Part shown: one piece after another, positions 14,857-50,365 of the stretch
Layout of the letters: every line of letters starts with the position of its first letter
Numbering within the stretch: the first letter of the stretch is position 1
From: Oscillospiraceae bacterium
GTDB lineage: Bacteria; Bacillota; Clostridia; Oscillospirales; Acutalibacteraceae
Direction: 5' to 3'
DNA: 52,547 nucleotides
NCBI GenBank assembly: GCA_028683785.1
Contig: JAQUHC010000001.1
Span: forward strand, 1 to 52,547
Position numbers and translations under genes: made by a program
The notes under the pieces: generated by a model
Seen by the model: only the letters and a program-made list of their open reading frames with translations
What the model was told of the DNA's origin: nothing
Databases searched by the model: none

Positions 14857-14949
14857 ATGAAGGTAGTAGTGGTAAAAAGCCCTAAGATTATCGGGGGGGT
14901 ACTTCGTAAAATATTCGGAATAAAAAAACAATATTACATAGAACATTGA
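14857..14949 (+). CDS. spoVM: stage V sporulation protein M-like 30-aa peptide
   Basis: GGAGGAG RBS lies 6 nt upstream. MKVVVVKSPKIIGGVLRKIFGIKKQYYIEH aligns with B. subtilis SpoVM MKFYTIKLPKFLGGIVRAMLGSFRKD, with MK, K7, PK, GG, R17 and G21 conserved. It sits downstream of thiN, as in Bacillus. Confidence 0.7.
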   Translation: MKVVVVKSPKIIGGVLRKIFGIKKQYYIEH

Positions 14950-14963
14950 TTAGTACCAAACAA

Positions 14964-15055
14964 TACTAATTTAAAATAAACATATAGAAATATCATAATA
15001 ATAAGAAGATACATATTGACTTTGATATTATTTATGTTTATAAATTAAATCAGTA
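14964..15055 (+). repeat. AT-rich hairpin repeat, copy A (MITE-like family with TACTAA...TTAGTA ends)
   Basis: tactaatttaaaataaacatatagaaatatcataata...gactttgatattatttatgtttataaattaaatcagta. It is near-identical to copy B at 17982-18071. The two arms are reverse-complementary. Confidence 0.85.
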
Positions 15056-15151
15056 TCCGGAATAAAAGTGGCTGTTGCAAAACCAAGGTTGAGCATCAGC
15101 CTCTTTTATCAGTTTTTGGTATAATACAGGTTCCTAAAGGAGGGGAGCTTT

Positions 15152-17924: not shown

Positions 17925-17981
17925 ATGCTTATCACGCTTAATGAGATTGGTATTAGCCATCGGTTGAGTTTATGCTGCTTA

Positions 17982-18071
17982 TACTAATTTAAAATAAATA
18001 TATAGAAATATCATAATAAGAAGATATACAACGGACTTGGATATTATCTATGTTTATAAATTAAATTAGTA
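17982..18071 (+). mobile_element. AT-rich hairpin repeat, copy B (MITE-like), flanked by a perfect TTA/TTA duplication
   Basis: TTA at 17979-17981 and again at 18072-18074 flank TACTAATTT...AAATTAGTA. The right arm contains the last codons and the stop of the minus-strand gene 18061-18771. Confidence 0.75.
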
Positions 18072-18771
18072 TTACAACCATCATGTTGGGATATATCTCA
18101 TTTAATAAATCATCAGGATAATGCTCATCAAGAAATTTCTCAATACTGTTTGTGGGTGAAACACCAATCCGCCTTCTGCTTTGCCTTTCCAATGCCATGG
18201 CGGATATAAGCATATTGATCAACATAAAAATGCTTAAAACAACGGTCAATATCTTATTTATATATTTGGGTATACGGTCAATAAGTGAAGAAAGTCTCGG
18301 ATATATTTCTTTTACCCATATCAGCCCGAGCAACCCCCAGATAAAAGAATACATTATGTTTGTACGACCGTTAAAATTATATTGTGTATGGCTGTATTCC
18401 CAAGAAACCGTGCCAAATGCGAGTTCCTGACAAAAACTGCACAAATATTCAAATGCGCCGCCGATAACCGCACTCCCGAGAAAAATCCAGAGATCCCGCT
18501 TGTTCCTTAACCGCCTGAGACAAATGGTCAACAAAGCCGCCCCAACTCCATAAACAGGGTTAAACGGTCCGTATATTACTCCGACACGGCTTTCATATCG
18601 GCCCCGCATGATTATGCAGTACAGTGTTTCAAAAACGACGCCGATAAAACATCCGATGAGAAAGATCCAAAACAGCTTTGAATAGTTTAATTTATCGGTT
18701 GCTTTTTGCCGGTATTTGTTTTTGTTTTCCTTGACAAAAACCGGTTTACTCATTTTCATTTCTTTTTGCAT
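18061..18771 (-). CDS. multi-pass membrane protein of the putative ABC-transporter type IV (CmpB/DUF1113-like) family
   Basis: FWIFLIGCFIGVVFETLYC...GVIYGPFNPVYGVGAALL pattern. AAGGTGG RBS sits ahead of the ATG at 18771. The C-terminal ILI* is encoded by repeat copy B. Confidence 0.65.
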   Translation of the reverse strand: MQKEMKMSKPVFVKENKNKYRQKATDKLNYSKLFWIFLIGCFIGVVFETLYCIIMRGRYESRVGVIYGPFNPVYGVGAALLTICLRRLRNKRDLWIFLGSAVIGGAFEYLCSFCQELAFGTVSWEYSHTQYNFNGRTNIMYSFIWGLLGLIWVKEIYPRLSSLIDRIPKYINKILTVVLSIFMLINMLISAMALERQSRRRIGVSPTNSIEKFLDEHYPDDLLNEIYPNMMVVILI

Positions 18772-18882
18772 ATGATTCACCACCTTGGTTGTAATGCAGA
18801 CAGGAAAAAATTACTCCGATTTTCATGTAAATAAAGGGGGAAGATAATATTCATGATTTTATAATTCGGAGGGTAAAGATTA

Positions 18883-25397: not shown

Positions 25398-27215
25398 TTA
25401 ATCATCACTCAGCTTAAGAACCGCCATAAACGCCTCCTGCGGCACCTCAACGCTGCCCAGCTGGCGCATACGCTTTTTGCCTTCTTTTTGCTTTTCAAGC
25501 AGCTTCTTTTTTCGGGTGATATCGCCGCCGTAACATTTAGCAAGCACATCCTTGCGTAAAGCGCGTACCGTCTCTCTGGCGATTATTTTGCCCCCGATGG
25601 CGGCTTGAATCGGCACTTCAAACATCTGCCGTGGAATATTATCTTTTAACCGCTCACAAATTTTGCGGCCACGAGCATATGAGTTGCCCTCAAAAACAAT
25701 AAAGCTCAGGGCATCCACGATTTCACCGTTCAAAAGAATATCCAGCTTGACAAGATTGGATTTTACATAACCCTTTAGCTCATAATCAAAGCTGGCATAT
25801 CCCTTGGTGCGGGATTTCAGAGCATCAAAGAAGTCGTATATAATTTCATTAAGCGGAAGCTCATAATGTATATCAACCCTGGTCGTGTCGAGATATTTCA
25901 TGTCAATAAATACTCCACGCCGCTGTTGGCATAACTCCATAATATTACCCACATATTCATTCGGTGAGTATATATGGGCATCCGTGACCGGTTCCTCGGC
26001 AGAGGTTATCTGCCCGGGGTCGGGATAATTGGTTGGGTTATCTATTTCAATCACCGAGCCGTCGTTGAGGGTGATACGATAGATTACACTGGGGGCGGTG
26101 GTGATAATATCAAGGTTATATTCACGCTCCAATCGCTCCTGCACGATTTCCATGTGAAGCAGCCCCAAAAAGCCGCAACGAAATCCGAATCCCAGCGCGA
26201 CCGAGGTTTCGGGTTGGTAGCTTAAAGCAGCATCATTAAGCTGAAGCCGTTCAAGTGCTTCTCGCAGGTCCTGATAATGAGCGCCGTCGGCAGGGAAGAT
26301 GCCGCAATAAACCATCGGGTTTACCTTTTTGTATCCCGGCAGGGGCTGGGCTGCCGGGCGGTTTGCCAAGGTAATGGTATCTCCCACGCGTGCATCACCC
26401 ACTGCCCTGATTGAAGCGACAATATATCCGACTTCACCCGCATGCAATGATTCACACGGCTCCAGCCTTCCAGGGCGCATTATGCCGGCTTCCACCACCT
26501 CAAATTCTGCTCCGGTAGCCATCATTTTTATGGTATCGCCGAAATGAACAACGCCCGAAACCACACGAAAGTACACGATAACACCGCGATAGCTGTCATA
26601 ATAGCTGTCAAAAATCAATGCCTGAAGGGGTTGGTCATCATCCCCCTTGGGCGGAGGAATGAGGTTGATTATCGTCTCAAGCACCGCTTCAATATTGATA
26701 CCCTGCTTGGCCGAAATGGCAGGGGCATCAGAGGCATCGATACCGATAATATCTTCAATTTCACGGCGCACCTCATCCGGGCGGGCGGAGGGCAGGTCAA
26801 TTTTGTTAATGACCGGAACAATTTCAAGCCCGTGATCGACAGCAAGATAGGTATTGGCAAGGGTTTGCGCCTCAATTCCCTGAGAGGCATCTACTATAAG
26901 AATAGCGCCCTCGCAGGCGGCAAGTGAGCGTGACACCTCATAATTAAAATCAACATGGCCGGGGGTGTCAATAAGATTAAATGTATAGGTTTTCCCGTCT
27001 TTGGCATCATAATTAAGGGTAACGGCATGAGCTTTTATGGTTATGCCGCGCTCACGCTCAAGATCCATGCTGTCAAGCAGCTGTTCCTCCATATCGCGTT
27101 GGGCAACCGCCTGTGTTTTTTCCAAAATACGGTCAGCAAGTGTGGATTTGCCGTGGTCTATATGTGCAATTATGCAAAAATTACGGATTTGGTCGCGGGA
27201 TGTCAAAAATAACAC
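25398..27215 (-). CDS. lepA: elongation factor 4 (translational GTPase LepA)
   Basis: [24 protein letters not shown] and NKID G-motifs, plus the conserved LepA C-terminal domain. A TTG at 27206 after GAGGTG is an alternative start. Confidence 0.97.
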
Positions 27216-27280: not shown

Positions 27281-27324
27281 TTTTAAAAAAGGGTGCTGAA
27301 AATGAATTCCATCATTTTCAGCAC
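27281..27324 (-). terminator. rho-independent terminator (minus strand) ending the HPr-like gene transcript
   Basis: A 13-bp stem, gtgctgaaaatga pairing with tcattttcagcac. On the minus strand it is followed by CCCTTTTTTAAAA. Confidence 0.7.
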
Positions 27325-27375
27325 ATATTTGTAATGCTTATTTGTAGACGAGAAAGGCAGACGGAGTTTTGCTGA

Positions 27376-27572
27376 TACTAATTTATACTAAATCCAACTA
27401 TAACTATTCCATAATTATCGCTCATGGCGCGTTCTTCCTATACTAATTTAAATTAGTATTAGGAACGCATCGCTCTATTCTGGAATGTTTTAGAATGGAT
27501 TTAGTATTAATTATAAACATGGATAATATCCAAGTTTATTATGATATTTTTATATATTATTTTTAATTAGTA
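27376..27572 (-). mobile_element. AT-rich hairpin repeat, copy C (reverse orientation, 15-bp internal deletion), split by a nested 121-bp insertion
   Basis: Segments 27376-27385 and 27510-27572, when joined, align end-to-end with the reverse complement of copy B. The right end overlaps the stop codon of the HPr-like gene. Confidence 0.75.
27386..27506. mobile_element. 121-bp palindromic element nested inside copy C, flanked by a TTA/TTA duplication
   Basis: Perfect 11-bp terminal inverted repeats, TACTAAATCCA and TGGATTTAGTA. The arms show imperfect complementarity throughout. The centre is a perfect 20-bp palindrome, ATACTAATTTAAATTAGTAT (27440-27459). TTA lies at 27383-27385 and 27507-27509. 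Confidence 0.7.
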
Positions 27573-27841
27573 TCAGAATCGGTTCCGTAAAGGTTTAGGC
27601 GGAAAAGCCTGCTTTCATCTTCGGGGTCGCTGCAGACGACGGTTGCTTCGCCGACATTGCCCCAGTCAACCGTACTTGACAGCGCAAGGAGTTGGGTAAG
27701 CCTGCTCTTGAGATTGAGGACGTCCCCCTCGGATGTTTTAAGTAACACTTCGCCTTTTGCGGTGGATGCAAATTCGATCAGCTTGTTGAATTCGAAATTG
27801 TGAATGGTAAAACCGGCCATATAAATCGCTCCTTTCAACAT
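27563..27841 (-). CDS. divergent HPr-like (PTS phosphocarrier fold) small protein
   Basis: TIHNFEFNKLIEFAS aligns with the HPr block GIHARPATMLVQTAS, VLNLKS with the Ser46 region KVNLKS, and GEATVVCSDPEDE with G.E.T....G.DE. An ATG at 27820 has the better RBS (AAAGGAG) but would remove strand 1. Confidence 0.45.
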   Translation of the reverse strand: MLKGAIYMAGFTIHNFEFNKLIEFASTAKGEVLLKTSEGDVLNLKSRLTQLLALSSTVDWGNVGEATVVCSDPEDESRLFRLNLYGTDSDTN

Positions 27842-28038: not shown

Positions 28039-28067
28039 TTGACATGGGTGCGTGGTAATGGTAAATT
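28039..28067 (+). promoter_or_regulatory. sigma-A promoter of the hrcA-grpE-dnaK-dnaJ operon
   Basis: TTGACA (28039-28044), a 17-nt spacer, then TGgTAAATT (extended -10). It lies immediately upstream of CIRCE. Confidence 0.55.
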
Positions 28068-28075
28068 ATATATAG

Positions 28076-28102
28076 TTAGCACTCGGCAAGCCGGAGTGCT
28101 AA
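28076..28102 (+). promoter_or_regulatory. CIRCE operator (HrcA binding site)
   Basis: A perfect TTAGCACTC-N9-GAGTGCTAA inverted repeat. Confidence 0.95.
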
Positions 28103-46399: not shown

Positions 46400-46666
46400 T
46401 AATGCAATAAACGCATTGATAGAGAGAGTACCTCGTGTTTTTTCGTATAAGAGAAGGTTGTCATAGGCTGAAAGCAATCTGCGAAAAAGGCGGGAGAAGT
46501 TCACTCCGGAGCGGTAGGGCTGAAAATTTAGTAGGCTCTGACGGGTGACGCCGTTAAATGTCTTAAAAGTGTTTATTTATGCATATTGTTTTGCATACGA
46601 TGAAAATCAGGGTGGTACCGCGGAGGAATGACCTTCGTCCCTTTTATGGGGACGGGGGTATTTTTA
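46400..46666 (+). promoter_or_regulatory. T-box riboswitch leader, Phe-specific (UUC specifier)
   Basis: Stem I AGAGAGAGTA at 46421-46430. Specifier context GAAG-TTC-A, with TTC at 46500-46502. T-box sequence AAAATCAGGGTGGTACCGCGG at 46603-46623. The terminator ccttcgtccc / gggacggggg followed by a T-run lies at 46632-46666. Confidence 0.9.
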
Positions 46667-50170: not shown

Positions 50171-50243
50171 GCCTCTTGAAAAATTTGTATAAGTACAGTA
50201 TAATGTATTTATACATTTTAATTCTGAAGGAAGTTAAGGCATA

Positions 50244-50332
50244 TACTGATTTAATATTAATATATAGAAATATCTTTATATAAGTTATATAATAGGCTTA
50301 GGTATTATCTATGTTTACAAATCAAATTAGTA
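50244..50332 (+). repeat. AT-rich hairpin repeat, copy D (diverged centre)
   Basis: The 5' 32 nt and the 3' 33 nt or so match copy B with a few mismatches. The central loop region differs. The flanks are ATA and TTA. Confidence 0.8.
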
Positions 50333-50365
50333 TTATTAACCGGCAAGAGAAGCGGAGGCGTAACA

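Follow-up and report, generated by a model that had tools for sequence, protein, structure and literature searches.

A 200-bp composite at the end of an HPr-like gene in an Acutalibacteraceae-like bacterium is probably a nest of miniature elements that duplicate T-N-A

Tourist MITEs (PIF/Harbinger) duplicate TWA and are often nested in each other in maize and rice, and the bacterial Correia, RUP and ERIC elements have TA duplications and either are associated with IS630-type elements or lack a known partner. The elements of all three families (Correia in Neisseria, RUP in Streptococcus pneumoniae, and ERIC) are co-transcribed, form long hairpins, and can change the ends of reading frames (PMC3184786, PMC10969869, PMC3049150). 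They are MITEs of ~100-150 bp that are located at or inside gene ends, like the elements described below, but they share no sequence similarity with them. The cyanobacterial MITEs, i.e. MaeMITE of Microcystis aeruginosa and Nezha of Anabaena and Nostoc, are small, non-coding, and palindromic, and they are present in many copies, most of which are intergenic (PMC2779907, PMC3184786). The IS1031 group of the IS5 family prefers 5′-TNA-3′ and exclusively generates a 3-bp repeat (PMC12016507).

Here we describe a 200-bp composite in the genome of an Oscillospiraceae bacterium (assembly GCA_028683785.1), which is probably a nest of non-autonomous elements (MITEs) that use T-N-A as their insertion site and duplicate it. 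The whole stretch of DNA that was analysed comprises 52,547 nt of contig JAQUHC010000001.1 and is called the window throughout. The locus is also carried by two further assemblies, GCA_041859895.1 and GCA_028704865.1, and by one Logan assembly. Homologues of proteins encoded in the window are assigned to Acutalibacteraceae, Oscillospiraceae, or Clostridia. MITEs, TNA-duplicating elements, and nested MITEs are known kinds, and the families found in this Acutalibacteraceae-like lineage appear to be undescribed. The IS1031 group shares the TNA target and the 3-bp duplication with the elements described here, but its inverted repeats begin with GAxCC (ISLrh: GAACCTGTCTAGTATCT), whereas the ends found here begin with TACTAA. 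A derivation from this group would be read from the duplication itself; no transposase gene was found between an element-length pair of these ends in ~1.1 Mb of retrieved loci. The transposase genes near the window are of the ISL3 and UPF0236 types and are not bounded by TACTAA-type ends. Just past the right end of the window (L129:12382-18739), a group II intron reverse transcriptase/maturase, an ISL3-family transposase, and an UPF0236 protein are encoded. L130 and L131, the two short-read assemblies of this species, stop just before the group II intron, suggesting that the intron is multi-copy.

On the minus strand, the order of features is a conserved gene for an 85-aa protein (27563-27820), the composite, a terminator-like hairpin (27293-27324, minus strand), and lepA (25398-27215). 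The hairpin has a 13-bp stem followed by CCTTTTTT, including a run of T, and is separated from the composite by 48 nt. The 85-aa gene is located next to hrcA, and the hrcA-grpE-dnaK genes have the opposite orientation to the 85-aa gene and lepA. A CIRCE operator (TTAGCACTC-N9-GAGTGCTAA) is present at 28076-28102, just upstream of hrcA, and is adjoined by a promoter-like site, TTGACA-17-TAAATT, at 28039-28067.

The 85-aa protein is found throughout Oscillospiraceae-like genomes as a conserved protein, with 301 homologues, and H7, K38, and S39 are invariant. The earlier note had labelled it HPr-like. At the sequence level, the label is not backed by searches against Pfam, NCBIfam, and PDB sequences, none of which gave a match, but it is reasonable at the level of the fold: the predicted structure (pLDDT 72.7) has the order β-α-β-β-α-β-α, and its top 20 PDB matches are all HPr or Crh proteins, with TM values of 0.47-0.58. 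The residues K38-S39, which are part of LNLKSRL, resemble the HPr Ser46 site. As judged from the structural model, the protein may be an unannotated divergent relative of HPr/Crh that is linked to the heat-shock operon. Residues 80-85 have pLDDT values <50, and the tail is predicted to be disordered.

The outer part of the composite belongs to a family of ~92-bp inverted-repeat elements, the host family, with four copies in 52.5 kb that are 75-91% identical. Their ends are ATACTAATTTAA...TTAAATTAGTAT, and the arms are 35 nt long and imperfect. A search for uninterrupted copies, as the earlier note had proposed, was successful within the window: copies A (14963-15056), B (17981-18072), and D (50243-50333) are all on the plus strand, uninterrupted, and 81-91% identical among themselves, with the value of 91% for A and B. 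Copy D lies 73 nt downstream of pheT. The pheS-pheT genes are preceded by a T-box leader (46407-46645, plus strand; Rfam RF00230, 120.6 bits). Copy C (27376-27572, minus strand) is split into the parts 27376-27385 and 27507/27510-27572; it reads TACT...AGTA, and its orientation is reversed relative to A, B, and D. A further 9 kb and 8.3 kb of sequence flanking the window contained no additional copies of the host family or of the inner element. A putative decayed copy just upstream of A (14949-14955, TTAGTA) was rejected, its score being no better than those of shuffled sequences.

The host family shows a perfect flanking repeat in only one of four cases, i.e. copy B with TTA on both sides. 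Two copies are near misses: D is flanked by ATA and TTA, and C by TGA (27373-27375) and its imperfect partner TCA (27573-27575), both of which are T-N-A with unlike middle bases. On the gene strand, the right flank of C is located within the codons TCT GAT. Copy A, flanked by CAA and TCC, has no duplication. The copies differ from their surroundings in composition, with GC contents of 12-17% compared with 32% for the inner element and 44.5% for the window, and with 14-19 TNA triplets per 100 nt compared with 7.8 in the window. The motif ATACTAAWTY occurs nine times in the window, with an expectation of 0.65, and all nine instances lie within the elements described here. Within 18 nt, the terminal repeat of the host family contains a stop codon in each of the three frames. 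In the case of copy B, its right end (18061-18072) forms the terminal I-L-I-stop of a minus-strand, CmpB-like ORF (18061-18783), the counterpart of which in locus L001 has a Pfam match to ABC_trans_CmpB.

Copy C becomes a regular family member when its two parts are joined. The rejoined segments 27376-27385 and 27510-27572 align end-to-end with A, B, and D at 75-83% identity, and the right-hand part of C (27507-27573) matches B with a blastn E value of 4e-11. We tried all pairs of boundaries for an excision and scored the products by how well they agreed with copies A, B, and D. The best family alignment was obtained when 123-124 bp were removed exactly at 27383-27510, and four equivalent 124-bp excisions each correspond to the 121-bp segment plus one TTA. 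The excision thus restores a contiguous host copy, which supports insertion of the inner segment by transposition. A parse of the composite into two overlapping host-type units (27375-27459 and 27440-27573) was rejected, because 27375-27459 matches B only with E = 0.32, and because the split-copy parse restores the contiguous family alignment. The predicted form that lacks the inner element reads ...ATACTAATTTAATTATAAAC..., and the predicted form that lacks both elements reads ...GATTCTNAGCAAAAC.... The coordinates that had been reported for the composite, the inner segment, and the TTA flanks are all correct. The alignment of the joined segments with copy B also holds, at 83% identity, with a central gap of 16-18 nt and one indel of 1 nt.

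The inner element (27386-27506) is 121 bp long, has a GC content of 32%, and reads 5′-TACTAAATCC...GGATTTAGTA-3′. It is bounded by TTA on the left (27383-27385) and on the right (27507-27509), the two copies of its target-site duplication. Its terminal 11 bases are perfectly inverted, and the arms (27379-27415 and 27477-27513) comprise 37 nt with 76% complementarity; they have a GC content of 37% and are unlike the host element. There is no coding capacity, with stops in all six frames. The inner element is therefore small and non-coding and has terminal inverted repeats and a target-site duplication, as MITEs do; with regard to the several copies also typical of MITEs, one copy of the 121-bp sequence is present in ~70 kb of the genome, including 17 kb of extra flank.

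Independent copies of the 121-bp element, for which the earlier note had asked, were not found in these ~70 kb or in metagenome, viral, and plasmid collections. A scan of JGI metagenomes with 12+12-bp ends retrieved five unrelated elements and no second copy of the sequence. Viral contigs contained no second copy, the scans being blank or yielding chance matches in AT-rich coding DNA, and blastn against plasmids gave no match to the composite and none to a Microcystis element. The matches listed in the scan of the genome collection include no copy of the inner element from this genome. The Logan contigs break ~25-26 nt inside the inner element (L003:10314-10339) and inside copy B (SRR28826804_67, near 18005), which hints at repeat-induced breaks, although a simple k-mer argument does not fit.

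In contrast to the full sequence, the ends of the inner element are widespread. Species-representative genomes (one per species) were scanned with its 10-bp ends at matching spacing, which yielded >112 loci as a lower bound. Among the matches listed, the hosts are mostly Microcystis, Pleurocapsa, Xenococcaceae, and Waterburya, together with one Verrucomicrobiota MAG, in which the element is a clean case flanked by TAA on both sides. The members are palindromic elements of 108-138 bp with varied interiors (e.g. L036:5459-5577 and L053:3586-3694; loci L004-L115), and many of them contain short G/C-rich tandem repeats. For 109 elements among the matches listed, both flanks are readable; 97 of them have T-N-A on both sides, and in 78 the two triplets are identical (TAA 34, TTA 18, TCA 15, and TGA 11). 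Moreover, T is found at position -2 of 93% of the ends among the matches listed. As far as sequences can tell, the flank rule is a 3-bp target-site duplication at TNA. A duplication of TA, as for IS630/mariner-type elements, was considered and rejected, since the duplicated triplet includes the variable middle base of T-N-A.

At each of its ends, the inner element agrees with this class in 11 of 11 terminal bases, and its TTA/TTA flanks agree as well. These ends and flanks fit the rule of more than 100 small elements elsewhere, which supports transposition of the inner element as well. Past base 11, the resemblance to the cyanobacterial elements is only loose, and the subterminal consensus of the class (~GGTTA.TAAA, positions 11-20) is not seen in the window, which has AACTATAACT and ATTCTAAAAC instead. 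We thus place the inner element in the class by its ends and its duplication, not by overall homology. The cyanobacterial elements retrieved from Microcystis, Pleurocapsa, and Xenococcaceae have the same ends TACTAAATCC, lengths of 108-138 bp, and the same TNA duplication as the inner element; their interiors and subterminal sequences differ from it, and the host here belongs to the Clostridia (Acutalibacteraceae-like). Their lengths also differ from the published MaeMITE consensus lengths of 176-429 bp, and no published MITE name was matched to them. A full-text literature search with the end sequences retrieved primers only. In Microcystis (L028:7067-7087; L031:3868-4005; L095:5445-5577), elements of the class abut via a common TAA (GATTTAGTA-TAA-TACTAAATC) or contain an internal second left end, and insertion into or beside one another thus appears to be frequent in the class.

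The centre of the inner element adds a possible further tier. It contains an 18-bp perfect palindrome, TACTAATTTAAATTAGTA (27441-27458), which equals two host-type 9-bp ends that abut with nothing between them, and either half exactly matches the outermost 9-10 nt of A, B, and the left end of C. When TACTAATTTAAATTAGTA is removed together with the TTA, the palindrome TTCCTAGGAA remains. On its two sides, the 18-bp sequence has CTA (27438-27440) and TTA (27459-27461), which are not a perfect repeat. We put the chance that the centre represents such a third tier at about even. The centre may stem from a host-type element that entered the inner loop and lost its interior, it may have entered as a minimal end pair as such, or it may be a native part of the sequence of the inner element.

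At its other end, the composite reaches into the 85-aa gene. The stop codon (27563-27565) and the three codons before it, GAT ACT AAT TAA in total, coincide with the terminal repeat of copy C. The sequence on the gene strand is ACC GAT TCT GA/T ACT AAT TAA, where the slash marks the start of the terminal repeat, and the gene of the closest relative ends with ACC GAT TCA AAG TAA. The C-terminus reads ...LYGTDSDTN here, compared with ...LYGTD-x-x-K in homologues with 75-87% identical proteins. These comparisons indicate that the last residue K of the protein was probably replaced by DTN, and that ~190 nt of strongly pairing RNA were probably inserted after the coding end, ahead of the terminator. 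The composite had been described as lying between the stop codon and the terminator; the terminator is indeed located beyond it, but the stop codon and the last three codons are inside copy C.

In related genomes for which the DNA was read (83-87% identical protein, ~150 kb), a terminator follows within ~20-40 nt of the stop codon, and no TACTAA-type ends are present in the related loci in these ~150 kb. The absence of either element from the related loci implies that both element families were acquired in this lineage and that the last codons of the gene were the insertion site of copy C. As regards the comparison of strains that the earlier note had suggested, the three assemblies in which the locus is present do not differ across the composite, so that no polymorphism is available, and the next relatives (≤87% protein identity) lack both elements. 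A composite that is conserved as a single unit in related genomes, which had been named, together with a lack of copies elsewhere, as the outcome that would speak for a structured RNA, was not observed, since every related species examined lacks it. The central proposal that the inner segment, with its own TTA duplication, is nested in copy C is supported by the optimum of the excision scan, by the ends and the TNA rule of the class, and by the empty relatives.

A history in three steps would account for the composite. A ~92-bp host-type element with the ends TACTAATTT would have entered the last codons of the HPr-like gene, so that the ancestral ...K-stop became D-T-N-stop from the terminal repeat of the element and the terminator was displaced downstream. 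The 121-bp element with TACTAAATCC ends would then have entered a TTA located nine bases inward from the end of the host-type element, duplicating TTA. The perfect duplication of the inner element and the imperfect one of copy C (TGA/TCA) fit with C being the older insertion. The pair of host-type ends that forms the 18-bp sequence in the inner loop would be a third insertion, or a host-type copy without its interior. A DDE transposase acting in trans may bind the ~11-bp ends and make 3-nt staggered cuts at TNA, as for the IS1031 group of IS5 and for PIF/Harbinger. AT-rich host copies would attract insertions, their TNA density being roughly double that of the genome, and this density is enough to explain elements landing in each other. 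Transcription of the composite would give a highly structured RNA that follows the coding end, precedes the terminator, and has no selected function.

We weighed this history against other origins of the composite. It is unlikely that the inner 121-bp palindrome is non-mobile and arose locally, be it by a hairpin-driven replication error, by growth of a palindrome, or by a one-off capture of foreign DNA, with TTA flanks that are coincidental. The single copy found in the searches made is what such an origin predicts, part of the sequence could come from the surrounding element, since the centre repeats host-type ends, and TTA is frequent in DNA with 12-17% GC. However, chance would then be required for both 11-bp ends to match >100 elements elsewhere that have a 3-bp TNA duplication, the arms, at 37% GC, are unlike the host element, and the optimum of the excision coincides with the position of the duplication. 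A more remote reading takes the TACTAA units as REP/REPIN-like sites of a RAYT-type tyrosine or IS200/IS605-type single-strand transposase, arranged in a BIME-like cluster. This would agree with the six TACTAA motifs that alternate in orientation over 200 bp and with a strong potential for DNA hairpins (DNA fold z = -7.4 vs shuffles). Such systems make no target-site duplication, in contrast to the 3-bp TNA duplication that is the rule here, the host copies are whole ~92-bp AT-rich units with long imperfect arms and not ~20-bp REP hairpins, which are short and GC-rich, and the split copy C rejoins exactly. Together, these differences make a REP-type origin highly improbable.

The composite might also be maintained because it works as a structured signal at the RNA or DNA level, e.g. 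by stabilising the mRNA, as a processing site, or as an array that binds protein, with its likeness to transposons reflecting nothing but its origin. Bacterial MITEs in transcribed regions have been documented (PMC3184786, PMC10969869), the composite is positioned between the coding end and the terminator, and it folds with -63.2 kcal/mol (z = -8.0 vs shuffles, RNA). A very stable fold is, however, an automatic result of nested inverted repeats. No Rfam match at the gathering score falls into the composite, the only match in the window being the T-box leader at 46407-46645, the composite is absent from every related species examined, and the three carriers are identical, so that there is no covariation. 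We regard a maintained function as very unlikely, less so than the REP-type origin and more so than the local one. The reading of the composite as nested MITEs that duplicate T-N-A is the one that we prefer.

A broader proposal is that TACTAA-ended, TNA-duplicating elements form a group that spans phyla (Cyanobacteria, Verrucomicrobiota, and Clostridia) and is moved by a transposase lineage that has yet to be tied to these ends. We consider it speculative and rather doubtful. If it were true, the 18-bp centre would be a natural minimal substrate, indicating that 9 bp per end suffice for insertion, and the elements would preferentially target each other's AT-rich ends.

For the annotation of such genomes, the nested MITEs are a warning that C-termini and long "structured 3′ UTRs" can be transposon and not regulatory RNA. 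The 11-bp end and the TNA duplication that the inner element has in common with abundant cyanobacterial elements provide a lead for finding the transposase. The locus offers a clean and datable order of insertions in a lineage of uncultured gut or digester Clostridia, in which MITEs recast gene ends: copies B and C, two of the four in the host family, provide the last codons and the stop codon of the neighbouring gene.
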